Part shown: piece after piece, positions 3,547 to 50,793 of the stretch | Numbering within the stretch: the first letter of the stretch is position 1 | How the letters are laid out: each line of letters begins with the position of its first letter | IMG/VR virus record: IMGVR_UViG_3300044971_004534 | Direction: 5' to 3' (one strand) | Source of the DNA: a virus | DNA length: 64,000 nucleotides | Notes under the pieces: model-generated | Database searches by the model: none | Seen by the model: the letters and a program-made list of their open reading frames with translations, nothing else | Told to the model about the DNA's origin: nothing | Made by a program: the position numbers and the translations under genes

Positions 3547-4101
3547 ATGAGTGTGTCCGAAGAGCACTCAGAAATTTTAAACCAGAAAATTGGTTCTTTC
3601 TCGCAGCATCGTGTTGCGTGTGAGAGGCTGTCTTGGCACAAATACTTTTTTGATCTTTCATATCTTGTTGCTGCTCGGTCTCCAGACGCTCAAACAAGGC
3701 ATGGAGCAGTAATCGTAGATAAAGAAAACAGGATTGTTTCTACTGGCTATAACGGATTCCCAGCCAACGGTCCTGATGAAATTTTGCCCAATGTTCGTCC
3801 AGAGAAGTATCCATACATAGTGCATGCAGAGATGAACGCCCTACTGTCGGCACGGTGCGATGTGCGTGGATACTCTGTGTACATCACTGGAATGCCGTGC
3901 AAAAATTGTCTTCTTCACCTGATTGGTGCTGGGATCTCAAAAATTTTTGCAGGCCATACCAAATTTCAAGAAGACCTTGAATCCATGATCGCAAAGGCTG
4001 TTCTGTGCGAGGTTTACGGTGTAGAAGTATACACCCATGCACAGGGTAGTCACGATAAAATCGTTCCCTGGGACCACAAGAAGTGGATTTCAGGGGCTTG
4101 A
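3547..4101 (+). CDS. dCMP deaminase (ComEB/dCMP_cyt_deam family)
   Basis: HAEMNAL zinc/catalytic motif and PCKNCLLHL second zinc motif. VIVDKENRIVSTGYNG core typical of dCMP deaminases. Confidence 0.85.
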   Translation: MSVSEEHSEILNQKIGSFSQHRVACERLSWHKYFFDLSYLVAARSPDAQTRHGAVIVDKENRIVSTGYNGFPANGPDEILPNVRPEKYPYIVHAEMNALLSARCDVRGYSVYITGMPCKNCLLHLIGAGISKIFAGHTKFQEDLESMIAKAVLCEVYGVEVYTHAQGSHDKIVPWDHKKWISGA

Positions 4102-4153: not shown

Positions 4154-4999
4154 ATGGGTCTTGATAACGATAGGAAGTCGTTTTTGGTTGAAAAAATTAA
4201 GAAAGACATCTCTTTCATCAACACATCTTTGTTGACGACGGATCAGATGGTGGTTAGCTATGGTCGTTTGGTTGATCGTACTGCTAACAACAGCGTCAAT
4301 CATAAGACTATGGGCGTGGAGAATGTCATTTGGTTTACCGAGGAGGAAGAAAAAGAGTTTTTCTCTCTGTATGGTAGTGCTCGTGCTGACTTCATCCACA
4401 ATCAGAATGACATCGACATGGAGAAGATGCTTGAAGATGTCATGCGAATTCGCACTATTTTGATTTATCAGCACATGCCTATGGTGCAGGCATGGGTGCG
4501 CAGGCAGATGTCCAAGCGCTCCAAGAATAGGCACCATCTTACCATTGAAGATAAAAATAGCGAAGGGCTTCGTGTGCTCCTCAACTGCATCGACAGGTTC
4601 GATTGCAGCAAACAGACCAAGTTTTTGGGTTATCTCTTTAGAGCCTTGGACAATCTCGTCTTGAAGGACGTTAGGGACAATAAAAAGAGACAAAAAGACA
4701 TTGAGATGGACCTGGTTGATGTCTCTCATGTCAGAGATAGAGCTAGCGAGCTTTCCCCTGTCCTTGTTGAAGTCAAGGATATTTGGGAAGGATGCAGTGG
4801 CGACAATGGTGCTGCTGCCTTTCTGACTGATTTTGAAAGGTCTATCATCCTCCATGAGTTTGGCGATGATTTTGCCGATTTGGTACAGGATGAAAGGGCC
4901 AAGTCTTTGAATATTAACTTGGCCACCTTTAGAAAGAAGAGAAAGAATGCTATTCAAAAGATCAAAGAGGCAATCTTCTCGCGTCTTAATCTCCACTAG
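4154..4999 (+). CDS. sigma-70 family RNA polymerase sigma factor (divergent, phage-type)
   Basis: Region-2-like EGLRVLLNCIDRFDCSKQTKFLGYLFRALDNLVLKDVR and region-4-like FERSIILHEFGDD...LNINLATFRKKRKNAIQKIKEAI. Start chosen at ATG 4154 behind AAGGAGGA; ATG 4106 is an alternative. Confidence 0.7.
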   Translation: MGLDNDRKSFLVEKIKKDISFINTSLLTTDQMVVSYGRLVDRTANNSVNHKTMGVENVIWFTEEEEKEFFSLYGSARADFIHNQNDIDMEKMLEDVMRIRTILIYQHMPMVQAWVRRQMSKRSKNRHHLTIEDKNSEGLRVLLNCIDRFDCSKQTKFLGYLFRALDNLVLKDVRDNKKRQKDIEMDLVDVSHVRDRASELSPVLVEVKDIWEGCSGDNGAAAFLTDFERSIILHEFGDDFADLVQDERAKSLNINLATFRKKRKNAIQKIKEAIFSRLNLH

Positions 5000-5441
5000 A
5001 GATCAAGACTGCTATCATTTTGCTGGCAGCGATGTTCACGGAATAGGTGTTTTTGCAAAAAAAGACATTCAAAAGGGTGAAAAAATAGGAAAATTTCTTC
5101 ATCTAAGGAAGAAAGACAATTCTGATAAGATCAATAGGTTTGTCAGAGATGAACTTTGCAGGTTCATGAATCACAGTGACGAGCCTAATGTAATTCTTGT
5201 AATCAATGAAAATGGAGGGCTTGATGCTAAAGCCTTGCATAGATTACAAAAAAGTGAAGAACTTTTCATAAATTACAATGATGCTTTTCAGATGTTGATG
5301 GATAAATTTTTCCCTTTTTTCATCGATGTTCCAGTTCTTATTAGGACTAAAGAATTAAAAAATCACGGCGGTAATATCAATAGTCGTGGTCTTTTAGACG
5401 AAATAAAGAGAATCAAAGATGGCGTTTGGAGAAAAGTTTAA
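4947..5441 (+). CDS. SET-domain protein (putative lysine methyltransferase)
   Basis: GIGVFAKKDIQKGEKIG, RFMNHSDEPNV (NHS..PN) and ELFINYND (EL..Y) motifs. The start is uncertain: ATG 4947 overlaps the sigma gene by 53 nt. Confidence 0.7.
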   Translation: MLFKRSKRQSSRVLISTRDQDCYHFAGSDVHGIGVFAKKDIQKGEKIGKFLHLRKKDNSDKINRFVRDELCRFMNHSDEPNVILVINENGGLDAKALHRLQKSEELFINYNDAFQMLMDKFFPFFIDVPVLIRTKELKNHGGNINSRGLLDEIKRIKDGVWRKV

Positions 5442-8748: not shown

Positions 8749-9228
8749 ATGGAAAAAAGACTAACAGAAATTGCAGTAAATTTAATGGGTGCTCATTTTT
8801 CATCCATGATCTCCATGGAAGGGCAAAAGAAGCATTGCAGTGCTATTGTCTATGACGGCGAGGTTATTGCAGTTGGCTTTAATAGACATAGGACTAGTCA
8901 AATTGCTTTCGAGTTTGGCTATCAATATGGAGAGTATCATGCCGAACTAGATGCGCTAATTCAGATTCACCATTTTGCCATGGATCTTGAAAAAGATAAA
9001 CTTTCTCTCATAAATTTTAGAATCAATAGATTTACTAACATAGGAATTTCTCGTCCATGCTCCAAGTGCATGAGATGGGCTGATGGACTTTTTTCTACAT
9101 TCATGTACACGGACGCTGATGGTGGTCTTGTTATCGAAGATTCACTTACCAAAGAACGTGTGAATGTTATGAATGCTTTTGATTTGCGCAAAAAATTAGG
9201 ATGGAAAGAGAGTGTGTGCCATGCTTGA
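8749..9228 (+). CDS. cytidine/deoxycytidylate deaminase-fold zinc protein (second, divergent copy)
   Basis: HAELDAL and PCSKCMRW motifs with the spacing typical of the CDA fold. The substrate cannot be assigned from sequence. Confidence 0.65.
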   Translation: MEKRLTEIAVNLMGAHFSSMISMEGQKKHCSAIVYDGEVIAVGFNRHRTSQIAFEFGYQYGEYHAELDALIQIHHFAMDLEKDKLSLINFRINRFTNIGISRPCSKCMRWADGLFSTFMYTDADGGLVIEDSLTKERVNVMNAFDLRKKLGWKESVCHA

Positions 9229-10009
9229 TGTGAAATCTTCAAAATATGCTGCTATGGTTTTTTCTCGTTCCGGCATGTGCAATGACTTCATTGCAAATCT
9301 CAGGCCAGAAGAGAACAACTTATTGCTTGCTTGTAGCGGCGGACCTGATAGTGCAGCCATGATCGGTATTGCAAGAGTTTTGCTGAATCGTGGTCTTATC
9401 AAAAAAGCTGATGTTGTTCACGTAAATCACAATCTAAGAGATGAGGCTATGCTTGATGCAGAGGTTTGTGAGAATCAAGCTAATATGTTTGGTCTTCCAT
9501 TCTTTTATTACGATGTATATCCATCTATGTCTAATAAAAATTTATATGAGGCTGGCAGGGAGCTGAGATATCAGATTCTTCAGCATCACGCTTTAAGGCA
9601 TAATAGTCATGTAATCATGACCGCTCATCATGCTGACGACATTGCAGAGACGGTTATGATGCATTTGGCAAGAGGTTGCGGAGCTAATGGTCTTTGTGGC
9701 GTCCATGAAAGAAACTCTTCTTTTGGTCACGTTGACGTTGTTCGCCCTCTCTTGAAGGCGAGGAAAAAGAAGCTAGAAGAACTCTGCGAAAAAGCGGGAA
9801 TCGAGTACTGCGTAGACAAATCAAATTTTAATACTGAAAAATCTAGAGCTTATATCCGGCACTCTGTAATCCCCATGCTGGAAAAACTAAATCCAGCTTT
9901 TGTTGAACATGTTGCAAAAACGGCAATGCTCATGCAGGGTATTGTCGAGAAAGATGAATATGGGAAAATTAATAGAACAAAAAAACACTCTTCGAGCATT
10001 AAAAGCTAA
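9221..10009 (+). CDS. tilS: tRNA(Ile)-lysidine synthetase, short form (PP-loop ATPase domain)
   Basis: PP-loop LLACSGGPDSAAM and HHADDIAETVMMHLARG motif. ATG 9221 overlaps the upstream stop (ATGCTTGA). About 263 aa, so it lacks the long C-terminal domains of E. coli-type TilS. Confidence 0.75.
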   Translation: MLDVKSSKYAAMVFSRSGMCNDFIANLRPEENNLLLACSGGPDSAAMIGIARVLLNRGLIKKADVVHVNHNLRDEAMLDAEVCENQANMFGLPFFYYDVYPSMSNKNLYEAGRELRYQILQHHALRHNSHVIMTAHHADDIAETVMMHLARGCGANGLCGVHERNSSFGHVDVVRPLLKARKKKLEELCEKAGIEYCVDKSNFNTEKSRAYIRHSVIPMLEKLNPAFVEHVAKTAMLMQGIVEKDEYGKINRTKKHSSSIKS

Positions 10010-10022
10010 TCAGGAAAGAATT

Positions 10023-11072
10023 ATGGATAACAAGTTTGAGCCAGACGTAAAACTTGACTTTTGCGACGTTCTTATAGTGCCAAAGTCAACAAGAGTTGGC
10101 AGCAGGAAAGAAGTTAATCTAAAAACTTCTCTTCAATTTAGAAAGGCTAGATTTTCTCTACCGTGTGTGCCAGTGTGTGCATCAAACATGGATGGAGTGG
10201 GGACCGTGTCTATGGGGCAAAAACTTGCCACGCATAGCATGCTTACTACTCTAACCAAATACACGACTATGAAAGTTTTTGAAGATCAGAACTATAAAAA
10301 GTCTGATTATATTTTTGGAACTTTTGGCTTAGACGATGACAGTAAGAGCATACTTTTTAATGAAAATTTAGAAAAATACTTTTCCACCATTTGCTTAGAT
10401 GTTGCTAATGGGTACATGGACAAATTTTTAGATTTTGTTTACGTGGTAAGAAAGCGTTGGCCAAACATGGGCATCCTCGCTGGCAACGTAGTTACTCCAG
10501 AGGGGGTTTACGAAACGGCTCGTGCCGGTGCAGACTTTGTTAAGGTAGGCATAGGCAGCGGGTCTGTCTGCACTACACGACGCGTTGCCGGTATCGGCTA
10601 TCCGCAGCTCTCTGCTCTACTTGAGTGTCGTTCTGCTGCTGAAGAAAGTGGATGTGGAGTAGTCAGTGATGGCGGCTGCGTGCATCCAGGAGACGTGTCA
10701 AAGGCATTTGCAGCAGGTGCGGAGATAGTCCTTCTTGGCGGCATGCTTGCTGGCCACGATGAAGGCGCCGATGACGGCGTATTCATAGATGACGGTGAAA
10801 AAAGAAGATTTGTTTTCTCGGGGTCTTCTTCTTCGCGTGCATTGAAAAAGATTGGAAACAACTCTAAATACAGAACTTCTGAGGGTCGAGTGGTAATCAT
10901 GGACGCCAAGGGTCCAGTTGAAGAAACCGTAAATCATATCCTGGGCGGACTTAGATCAACTTGCTCATACACAAATTGCTTCGACCTAAAGGATTTATTT
11001 ACTAATTCAAAGTTTATTCGTGTCAATAGACAACTTAATGAGTACTTCGAACATCACACAATAGGTGTTTAA
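10023..11072 (+). CDS. guaC: GMP reductase
   Basis: 349 aa from ATG 10023 (AGGAAAG upstream). The N-terminus MDNKFEPDVKLDFCDVLIVPKST parallels E. coli GuaC. GIGSGSVCTTR catalytic-Cys loop of the IMPDH/GMPR family, with no CBS insert. Confidence 0.85.
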   Translation: MDNKFEPDVKLDFCDVLIVPKSTRVGSRKEVNLKTSLQFRKARFSLPCVPVCASNMDGVGTVSMGQKLATHSMLTTLTKYTTMKVFEDQNYKKSDYIFGTFGLDDDSKSILFNENLEKYFSTICLDVANGYMDKFLDFVYVVRKRWPNMGILAGNVVTPEGVYETARAGADFVKVGIGSGSVCTTRRVAGIGYPQLSALLECRSAAEESGCGVVSDGGCVHPGDVSKAFAAGAEIVLLGGMLAGHDEGADDGVFIDDGEKRRFVFSGSSSSRALKKIGNNSKYRTSEGRVVIMDAKGPVEETVNHILGGLRSTCSYTNCFDLKDLFTNSKFIRVNRQLNEYFEHHTIGV

Positions 11073-11174
11073 GTCACATAGATGTTTTCGTGTCATCTCT
11101 GAGTTTTCAGGGATATATATGGGTGTGGCATAGCTGTGAATGTCGCCTGTTTTTGAGTAAAAAAGGAGCAAAAG

Positions 11175-49126: not shown

Positions 49127-49789
49127 ATGGAAAATCATATTACATTTACAACAACGGCGATGGCGCGTCCAGAAATATTGGAGCAAACATATAGTAATTT
49201 TCAAGTTTGCTTAGATGTAGATATGAAAGAGTACAATTTAAGAATAAACATTGACCCGTTGCCAAAGGCAAGAAAAGTTGATCAAGTAGTAAATGTCGCA
49301 AAAAAGTTTTTTAAACATGTTGATTTTAATATTTCAGCAAATGCAAATTTCCCTAGTGCAGTTAAGTGGTGCTGGAGCGAATTGAGCACAAAGTATGTAT
49401 TTCATCTTGAGGATGACTGGGAGCTTACTAGGCGCATCTTGTTGTCAGATTTATACAATATGTTAGAAAACGCTCCAGAAATGAATCAAGTTCTACTTCG
49501 ACCATACCACGAAACTCACAAGGTAAGTTTAGTTCCTGGTTTATTAAGAAGTGATGTGGCTATGTTTCTATCTAGACATATGATTCTAAATAAAAATCCT
49601 GAAAAACAAATTCATTCAAATGAACACTGCGGAAAAGACGGAGACCCTGGATTTGATGCGAACAAAGTAATAGTGTATCCAGAAGACGTATGTTTAAGAG
49701 ACATTGGCAGAGTATGGATAAAGTCTCAGCCAGTTATTCGTCCTGGACCTGACTTTATATCTTGGGAAAAGAAAAAAGACATTTACTGA
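49127..49789 (+). CDS. hypothetical protein, possible GT-A-like (HLEDDWEL)
   Basis: 220-aa ORF. Only a weak EDD motif. Confidence 0.4.
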   Translation: MENHITFTTTAMARPEILEQTYSNFQVCLDVDMKEYNLRINIDPLPKARKVDQVVNVAKKFFKHVDFNISANANFPSAVKWCWSELSTKYVFHLEDDWELTRRILLSDLYNMLENAPEMNQVLLRPYHETHKVSLVPGLLRSDVAMFLSRHMILNKNPEKQIHSNEHCGKDGDPGFDANKVIVYPEDVCLRDIGRVWIKSQPVIRPGPDFISWEKKKDIY

Positions 49790-50793
49790 ACAACTTCAGA
49801 TGTTGACACGTTTTCTTTATGTCCAGAAAACTGAATGTTTACCAATTCTGTTCTTTCTCTTATAGCGTCATCTACAAATCTTTGCATGTCATATAGAGTT
49901 GCAAAATCAACTAGATTGCCGTCAAGTATGACCTTAAATACACCCACTGACTGGAGAACGTCACACTTGTTGATGACTAAATCTGTGCATCCAGAAATAC
50001 GGATAGACTCAATGAGCTTGTCAATATTTAACCAATTGACCATTCTTTTTCTGCCAGTAGTAGATCCAAATTCTTCTCCAGCACTGATAATTTTATCAAG
50101 CACCTTATCTTCCCACAAAGACTCAGGGAATAATGGATCTACTCCACTTTTAGTGTCGTATATTTTAGCAACTCCAATAAGTCGTCTAATTTTTTGTGGA
50201 GAAAAGCCAAGAGAGCATGCGCCATAAGGCATGGTTGTGCTGCTTGTAACGAAGGGATAGCAGCCATGATCTATATCGAGCCATACACTTTGAGCGCCTT
50301 CGCATAAAACTTTACCTTCAAGTACTCCATCCCAGATATATTCTTTTGGTAAAAAGTCTTTTACTCTAAGTCCTTTGCGAAGCATTTTGTCTGCGTAGCA
50401 CGGAGCTATTCCCTGACCTGTAGTGCCAAGGCTCTTTTTTAGATTATTTAAATCGAAGGAAATGTGCTCTTCCGTTATGACATGTGCATTTGGAGAAACT
50501 TTAACAAGCGAAGTATTAAAACCGGCTTCATTGAGATAATTAATTTCATCAAAAAATTTCTTTACATTAATTACACATCCAGGGCCTATGATACACTTCT
50601 TGTTCTTGAAAATACCAGAAGGTATCATATGGGTTTTATATTTTTTATCATTGACGTACACCGTATGCCCAGCATTTGGACCACCATTCCATCTGCATAC
50701 GCAATCATATTTGTCCGCAAGTGCATTTGCTATCTTTCCTTTTCCTTCATCTCCCCATGATAGTCCATAAATAACGTCAACAAATTTGATCAT
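49783..50793 (-). CDS. purA: adenylosuccinate synthetase, short (about 336 aa, archaeal-length) form
   Basis: WGDEGKGKI P-loop, NGGPNAGHTV, GTTGQGIAPCYADK, GSTTGRKRMVNW and the NKCD guanine-specificity-like motif. Confidence 0.85.
   Translation of the reverse strand: MIKFVDVIYGLSWGDEGKGKIANALADKYDCVCRWNGGPNAGHTVYVNDKKYKTHMIPSGIFKNKKCIIGPGCVINVKKFFDEINYLNEAGFNTSLVKVSPNAHVITEEHISFDLNNLKKSLGTTGQGIAPCYADKMLRKGLRVKDFLPKEYIWDGVLEGKVLCEGAQSVWLDIDHGCYPFVTSSTTMPYGACSLGFSPQKIRRLIGVAKIYDTKSGVDPLFPESLWEDKVLDKIISAGEEFGSTTGRKRMVNWLNIDKLIESIRISGCTDLVINKCDVLQSVGVFKVILDGNLVDFATLYDMQRFVDDAIRERTELVNIQFSGHKENVSTSEVVQ

Follow-up and report, generated by a model that had tools for sequence, protein, structure and literature searches.

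The gene at positions 10,023 to 11,072 of the IMG/VR virus record IMGVR_UViG_3300044971_004534 raises the question why a phage should carry a putative GMP reductase (GuaC), an enzyme that takes guanosine monophosphate (GMP) back to inosine monophosphate (IMP). The whole stretch of 64,000 nucleotides that was analysed is referred to below as the window. An initial annotation of this DNA had combined GuaC with an adenylosuccinate synthetase (PurA) and a dCMP deaminase into a set of enzymes which would push nucleotide pools from G/C towards A/T, and open reading frames for all three enzymes were indeed found (positions in Table 1). We consider it fairly likely that this set moves guanine and cytosine nucleotides into adenine and thymine precursors for the AT-rich genome of the phage.

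GuaC and a minimal PurA encoded in the window

The product of the gene at 10,023–11,072 is predicted to be a GMP reductase, which converts GMP and NADPH to IMP and NH3, in agreement with its first assignment. It contains the Pfam domain shared by IMP dehydrogenase (IMPDH) and GMP reductase (GMPR) with 211.5 bits. The top-scoring IMPDH/GMPR models were two GMP reductase equivalogs, PRK05096 being the best, which match over the whole length, while IMPDH models reached about 167 bits and covered the C-terminal half only. The alignment with GuaC of Escherichia coli runs from end to end with 44–45% identity. The CBS (Bateman) subdomain is absent, since the alignment has no insert at the place where E. 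coli GuaB contains about 120 amino acids (aa). The catalytic loop GIGSGSVCTTR carries Cys186 and Thr188, Glu289 lies in an SEGR motif, and the ribose-binding Asp is present in SDGG (SDGGC). In IMPDH an Arg-Tyr dyad activates water and hydrolyses the covalent intermediate. The mobile flap of the window protein is as short as that of E. coli GuaC and lacks this dyad (no DRY element). The comparison of GuaC with IMPDH that had been proposed together with the first assignment thus speaks for a protein that is not an IMPDH. A sequence resembling a ribosome-binding site (AGGAAAG) is located 5 nt before the ATG of guaC, and gene calling on independent contigs arrived at the same product of 349 aa.

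The protein encoded at the distant purA locus matches Pfam Adenylsucc_synt (PF00709) in two stretches with 299.8 bits (cut-off 27). Bacterial PurA exceeds it in length by about 95 residues, and the segments corresponding to E. coli residues 157–206 and 361–397 are absent from it. Nevertheless all checked catalytic residues are kept, in E. coli numbering D13, K16, N38, H41, T128/T129, R143, Q224, T239, T300/T301, R303, R305, K331 and D333, together with the C-terminal S-G. D13, K16 and H41 correspond to D15, K18 and H43 of the protein itself, which contains the P-loop GDEGKGK and the motif NAGHT. Guanine specificity would be conferred by NKCD, matching (N/T)KxD with K331/D333, and by F-S-G. The checked residues were invariant among 16 family members. 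A search of PDB sequences gave bacterial PurA 4m0g as the best match (222 bits), and the AlphaFold2 model, with a predicted local distance difference test score (pLDDT) of 83, matches PurA structures. By these features the gene appears to encode a minimal GTP-dependent PurA that looks catalytically intact, which upholds the second assignment of the initial annotation. Had one of the enzymes been catalytically dead, the proposed set would have fallen apart; alignments of GuaC, PurA and dCMP deaminase revealed no loss of any catalytic residue.

An exhaustive search retrieved many short PurA relatives of 330–370 aa with 40–53% identity, which ranked before PurAs of normal length. PurA of Pyrococcus horikoshii (PH0438; PDB 5k7x, 2d7u) has the same reduced architecture with about 337 aa; the structure 5k7x shows this archaeal enzyme in the fully ligated state, with GTP and IMP bound. 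The model of the window protein reaches a template modelling (TM) score of 0.78 in both directions against this enzyme, and the two sequences align without a large gap. The window PurA is, however, closer in sequence to bacterial than to archaeal PurA (222 vs 141 bits; 290 vs 168 bits). Therefore the reduction in size looks independent of that in the archaeal minimal PurA.

The window is part of an uncultured, AT-rich lake-water phage. Its guanine+cytosine (GC) content is 36.4% overall, climbing to 46% toward the right end, which confirms the AT-richness assumed initially, and its genes are densely packed in the manner of phages. The 7.6-kb stretch with the deaminase and guaC genes was present in lake-water metagenomes from more than 12 studies (well over a dozen) and occurred at 99.5% identity on one 53.8-kb virome contig, while a megablast search of deposited phages yielded zero matches to the region. 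Metagenome contigs as long as 301 kb encode an identical PurA protein. Two runs labelled as RNA-Seq also contain small pieces of the region, which are probably DNA. Both guaC and purA are under purifying selection. Compared with a relative of 84–87% identity, the proportions of nonsynonymous (pN) and synonymous (pS) differences were 0.085 and 0.755 for guaC and 0.098 and 0.74 for purA, synonymous sites being saturated at this distance (pS about 0.75). All 10 of the 10 differences between guaC of the window and that of the 99.5%-identical virome contig fall on third codon positions.

Two deaminases and the apparent guaC operon

The dCMP deaminase was recognized by Pfam (dCMP_cyt_deam_1, 68.8 bits) as well as by PHROGs (phrog_174, 127 bits). 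Human DCTD (2w4l) is its best solved relative with 90.5 bits, and both zinc motifs, VHAEMNA (HAE) and PCKNC (PCxxC), are present. The score against the NCBIfam ComEB equivalog was 58 and lies below the cut-off of 219. From these motifs and matches the protein is predicted to be a dCMP deaminase with intact catalytic motifs, as had been stated before.

A second deaminase of cytidine deaminase (CDA) fold, designated CDA2, was not named in the initial annotation and is a likely fourth member of the module. Its gene opens an apparent operon that closes with guaC. No match was found in Pfam, PHROGs or PDB by single sequence and profile searches. The AlphaFold2 model of CDA2 (pLDDT 87.7) shows the CDA fold, with tetrameric cytidine deaminases and blasticidin-S deaminase as the nearest structures (TM 0.5–0.6), and language-model features place the protein near viral dCMP_cyt_deam_1-like clusters. 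Its zinc motifs are invariant among 18 homologues. The family is compact (about 123–159 aa) and shares invariant QKKH, H-x-E and KPCxxC elements, as seen for example in the loci L061 (8916–9287) and L067 (12590–12967) of related phages. The substrate of CDA2 is probably a cytosine nucleoside or nucleotide. A gene for a C5 cytosine DNA methylase is located about 2 kb downstream of the CDA2 homologue in L067.

Between CDA2 and guaC lies a gene for a protein with an SGGxDS motif, which matches the catalytic domain of Aquifex TilS with 91.6 bits. Its ATG (9221) overlaps the stop codon of the CDA2 gene by 8 nt, so that the two genes are translationally coupled, and guaC begins 13 nt past the stop codon of the TilS-like gene. 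A terminator-like hairpin downstream of guaC likely marks the end of this transcription unit. G002, a close relative, has conserved the TilS-like gene. The gene was ruled out as a constant partner in the module, since more distant relatives lack it in their GuaC/PurA cluster; the upstream 266-aa gene in the related locus L011 is unrelated to it.

Table 1 Features of the 64,000-nt window that are discussed in the text
Feature	Position	Strand	Remarks
DUF2201 metallopeptidase/VWA-like protein	46–1260	−	partner of the MoxR-type AAA ATPase
MoxR-type AAA ATPase	1266–2954	−	left end of the window, paired with the DUF2201 protein
dCMP deaminase (predicted), dCMP → dUMP	3547–4101	+	184 aa; PF00383
CDA2, second CDA-fold zinc deaminase (predicted)	8749–9228	+	YHAE and PCSKC motifs; first gene of the apparent operon
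Truncated TilS-like PP-loop ATPase (catalytic domain only)	9221–10009	+	PF01171, 158.8 bits
GuaC, E. coli-type GMP reductase (predicted)	10023–11072	+	349 aa; PRK05096 is the best NCBIfam model
Terminator-like hairpin with T run	11125–11156	+	53 nt past the guaC stop codon; consensus scan only
Minimal PurA (predicted), IMP + Asp + GTP → adenylosuccinate	49783–50793	−	336 aa; PF00709

Other genes of the window encode a sigma-70-like protein, an SNF2 helicase and the products of a long glycosyltransferase island. A gene for a SET-domain (lysine methyltransferase-like) protein was observed near the nucleotide genes of the window (4947–5441) and also in the distant relative L067 (6848–7384).

Gene order and distribution of GuaC and short PurA

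An alignment search of IMG/VR for short PurA yielded 505 contigs encoding such a protein. Linkage was analysed for 84 loci that include up to 10 kb of flanking sequence; in 32 of them PurA is flanked by 6 kb or more in both directions. A gene of the IMPDH/GMPR family was found within 10 kb of PurA in 54 of the 84 loci, a CDA2 homologue in 35, a dCMP deaminase in 23 and ribonucleotide reductase (RNR) in 14. ThyX was found in 12 loci, where it lies about 2.5 kb upstream of PurA; none of these 12 contains GuaC within 10 kb. When only the well-flanked loci are considered, the IMPDH/GMPR-family gene is present in 27 of 32, upstream of PurA every time, and a CDA-fold deaminase is additionally present in 25 of 32.

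The partner of PurA differs between two groups of phages. In a group of intermediate GC content (mean 37.8%), which includes the window phage, it is a clear E. coli-type GuaC in 31 loci, with a median distance of 1.2 kb between GuaC and PurA, the same orientation in 26 of 31 cases and CDA2 usually located just downstream. One of these copies, in L067, shows 61% identity to E. coli GuaC. In a group of low GC content (mean 28.8%; 23 loci) the partner is an IMPDH-derived enzyme without CBS domain which lacks the Arg of the dyad and may be either a reductase or a dehydrogenase. This clade-i enzyme (e.g. L031:7430–8539, L011:7528–8631) comprises about 368 aa, carries the signatures ADGGIR and YRGMAS, has an insert of about 19 aa before ADGG and shows 'EDY' at the position of the IMPDH Arg-Tyr dyad. 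Its gene neighbours are dCMP deaminase, RNR and PurA, with ThyX on the same contig: L031 combines RNR, dCMP deaminase, the clade-i gene and PurA within 11 kb, and the 40-kb contig of L011 contains both ThyX and RNR.

Some further genes recur close to the pair. A calcineurin-like metallophosphoesterase is encoded between both genes in L011 (8606–9289) and in the neighbourhood of GuaC/PurA in 20 other loci, and a gene annotated as 'Ser/Thr phosphatase family' lies near guaC of Caulobacter phage Cr30 (L110:5016–5825). Such phosphoesterases might supply nucleoside monophosphates. In relatives without GuaC within 10 kb a cytidylyltransferase-like gene (PF01467) directly follows the short PurA (L030:11219–11674, L032:11005–11448); it possibly encodes a nicotinamide mononucleotide (NMN) or pantetheine-phosphate adenylyltransferase.

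The initial annotation regarded GuaC as rare in viruses. This holds true for deposited phages, where GuaC matches occur in 72 of 50,697 records, but not for uncultured aquatic phages. Since GuaC is so rare in deposited phages, its co-location with PurA and deaminases is far beyond chance, and GuaC, short PurA and cytosine-type deaminases probably work together. The claim that the enzymes act as one set therefore stands as far as relatives encode GuaC, short PurA and a cytosine-type deaminase side by side, often close to RNR or ThyX; the purpose ascribed to the set is presumptive.

Only few cultured phages carry a full-length GuaC, namely Stenotrophomonas phages CM1 and RAS14, Xanthomonas phages Xoo-sp13 and XacN1, and Caulobacter phage Cr30, with identities of 38–42%. 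They resemble the window phage in this full-length enzyme and in being AT-rich. They differ from it in that searches for a PurA homologue in Cr30, RAS14 and XacN1 gave none. The converse is true of LR756501, a phage of 735 kb, which has a PurA of nearly full length and no GuaC. The linked GuaC-PurA pair seems to be confined to uncultured aquatic phages. In the stretches that were fetched the GC content was 37.8% for Cr30, 43.3% for RAS14 and 50.0% for XacN1. Their Caulobacter, Stenotrophomonas and Xanthomonas hosts have GC contents of about 65–67%. The cultured GuaC phages are thus much more AT-rich than their hosts, an analogy that fits a matching of nucleotide supply to genome composition. 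In Cr30 a dCMP deaminase and RNR are encoded near guaC.

A proposed route from G/C nucleotides to A/T precursors

The phage would make its adenine and thymine precursors from guanine and cytosine nucleotides which it salvages from RNA and DNA of the host. GuaC would convert GMP to IMP, and the minimal GTP-dependent PurA would convert IMP to adenylosuccinate, from which PurB of the host would free AMP. Kinases and RNR could then lead from AMP to dATP. On the pyrimidine side, dCMP deaminase would provide dUMP for thymidylate synthesis, and CDA2 would probably also work on a cytosine compound. We infer the direction of this flux in vivo, the reliance on host PurB, the kind of substrate used by CDA2 and the matching of pools to the genome as the purpose.

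Several observations weigh against this proposal. PurB was not found in the window, the related records or 90 related loci; the last step would therefore fall to the host, and the shunt would be incomplete without it. In G002, the nearest relative that could be searched, the 223.6 kb covered (55% complete as estimated by CheckV) contained no RNR, ThyA, ThyX or PurB, a result that applies to this part of the genome only. The motive, a nucleotide balance of the host that would differ from that of the phage, is presumed from the analogy with cultured GuaC phages. Unlike in its relatives, where the genes are adjacent, the module of the window phage is scattered (3.5 kb, 8.7–11 kb and 50 kb, a span of 47 kb). 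The partner of PurA in the low-GC clade is IMPDH-derived, and the linkage there could reflect control at the IMP branch point. Moreover, both enzymes of the purine arm score below the curated equivalog thresholds of NCBIfam. GuaC reaches 353.9 bits over residues 5–344 against NCBIfam PRK05096 (cut-off 397) and 329.3 bits against the second GMP reductase equivalog TIGR01305 (cut-off 492), and is therefore a diverged member of its family, in whose lineage the Met of the GMSS motif is changed to Ser. PurA reaches 290.3 bits against PRK01117 (cut-off 402) and 273.3 bits against TIGR00184 (cut-off 395.6), because the two segments named above are missing.

The route would also lose its meaning if one of the two purine enzymes had another identity. 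An IMPDH, or an enzyme working from IMP to GMP together with the adjacent PP-loop ATPase in the manner of guaB-guaA, would make the pairing with PurA a device for controlling the IMP branch point. An IMPDH-family gene beside a PP-loop ATPase does resemble guaB-guaA, and the low-GC sister clade shares the IMPDH-like signatures ADGGIR and YRGMAS. However, the window protein shows GuaC signatures and can be aligned with E. coli GuaC over its entire length, and the PP-loop protein is of the TilS type and not of the GMP synthase type, its gene being missing from the cluster in other relatives. We regard this reading as very improbable, and for the window gene itself an IMPDH identity is ruled out by the alignment (no CBS domain, no dyad, GuaC loops). 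For PurA the question is whether it might be a PurZ-type enzyme making 2-aminoadenine (Z) DNA. Short phage PurA homologues are mostly PurZ, the enzyme of 2-aminoadenine genomes. The window protein is likewise short, PurZ structures do match its model, and PHROGs assigns it to phrog_1211 with the label '2-aminooxy adenylosuccinate synthetase'. Yet it keeps Asp13, a residue which is replaced by Ser in 147 of 147 phage PurZ/PurZ0 proteins and conserved in 99% of PurA (PMC12884076, 2026). It also retains the guanine motifs NKxD and S-G, whereas PurZ of phiVC8, aligned here, has Ser at position 13 and F/N at 331/333 (in place of D13, K331 and D333) and differs at T300 and R303 too. Scores point in the same direction, with 290 bits for the NCBIfam purA model vs 101.8 bits for the PurZ model NF038379 (cut-off 300), and 222 bits for a PurA structure vs at most 69 bits for PurZ structures in the PDB search. 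Furthermore, a GMP reductase would deplete the guanylate precursor of PurZ. A PurZ function is hardly conceivable under these circumstances, and the identity is ruled out by Asp13, NKxD and the model scores.

Other explanations accept the two activities and differ in what the activities would serve. GuaC and PurA might boost purine salvage in general, raising the AMP and ATP that a very large phage needs as energy, for making RNA and for packaging its DNA, with base composition not being under selection. The chemistry would be the same as in the proposed route, and phages with PurA and without a nearby GuaC fit such a role, namely some relatives that lack GuaC within 10 kb and have PurA beside the cytidylyltransferase-like gene, and the 735-kb phage LR756501. 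This explanation, however, leaves the recurrent linkage to cytosine-type deaminases, ThyX and RNR unaccounted for, as well as the AT-richness of the cultured GuaC phages compared to their hosts; it is unlikely, though less so than the other alternatives. Still less probable is a depletion of guanine nucleotides in the course of host takeover or counter-defence, in which GuaC and the GTP consumed by PurA would lower GMP/GTP, ppGpp or guanine signalling, or in which PurA would restore adenylates lost to an ATP-degrading defence. It is compatible with the chemistry, and the guaC operon does include a gene without obvious tie to DNA precursors (TilS-like), but defence or anti-defence genes were not found linked to the module, whose constant partners are DNA-precursor enzymes. 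Similarly low is the probability we assign to a variant in which the GuaC/minimal-PurA pair acts at the deoxy level, from dGMP over dIMP and succinyl-dAMP to dAMP with host PurB finishing. If true, guanine from degraded host DNA would yield dATP directly and bypass RNR, as a purine mirror of dCMP deaminase and with a precedent in PurZ, a phage PurA homologue that takes a deoxynucleotide. Ribonucleotides are, however, favoured over deoxynucleotides as substrates by the retention of the ribose-binding Asp (SDGG) in GuaC and of Arg303 in PurA.

The proposed conversion of G/C nucleotides to A/T precursors has counterparts in known systems. E. coli possesses the first two enzymes and the same chemistry from GMP over IMP to adenylosuccinate in its GuaC-PurA-PurB route (b0104, b4177, b1131). 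The window genes differ in that they are phage-encoded, that no PurB was found and that PurA is a minimal enzyme of 336 aa. Furthermore, guaC and purA lie side by side in relatives of the window phage, whereas the E. coli chromosome has them in separate places, at 113 kb and 4,405 kb. The PurZ/PurZ0 pathway of phiVC8, S-2L and Archimedes likewise relies on a short phage PurA homologue of the same fold, whose product is finished by host PurB. PurZ carries Ser at position 13, uses dGMP and leads to 2-aminoadenine, whereas the window PurA keeps Asp13 and the residues for IMP, Asp and GTP. Similar in purpose are phage dCMP deaminases acting with thymidylate synthase (T4 Cd; roseophages R2C and R7L; Limnohabitans phage DC31), which turn an over-supplied host nucleotide into one that an AT-rich phage needs. 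In phages these two enzymes have been linked to the GC gap between phage and host (PMC11981692, PMC12195039). The relatives of the window phage differ from these systems by a purine arm (GuaC and PurA) linked to the pyrimidine deaminase. In the searchable literature we found no report on a phage GuaC-PurA pair or on GuaC in Cr30 or phiYS40. The parts belong to known enzyme families, and the pyrimidine half is already published. The purine arm in its linked form, the minimal PurA and the CDA2 family appear to be undescribed in that literature.

The assignment of an Asp13-containing PurA to phrog_1211 has a practical consequence, as pipelines that rely on PHROG labels would mistake the window phage and its relatives for phages with a Z-base genome. 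Phages are known to reshape pyrimidine pools by dCMP deaminase and thymidylate synthase when their genome is far more AT-rich than that of the host. A matching purine arm, consisting of GuaC and a minimal PurA and linked to cytosine deaminases, ThyX and RNR, extends across hundreds of contigs of uncultured aquatic phages. For biochemistry these contigs offer an adenylosuccinate synthetase that has been minimised in nature, and a small family of deaminases that is new. If the proposed role of the set is true, it would explain how AT-rich phages live on GC-rich nucleotide supplies.

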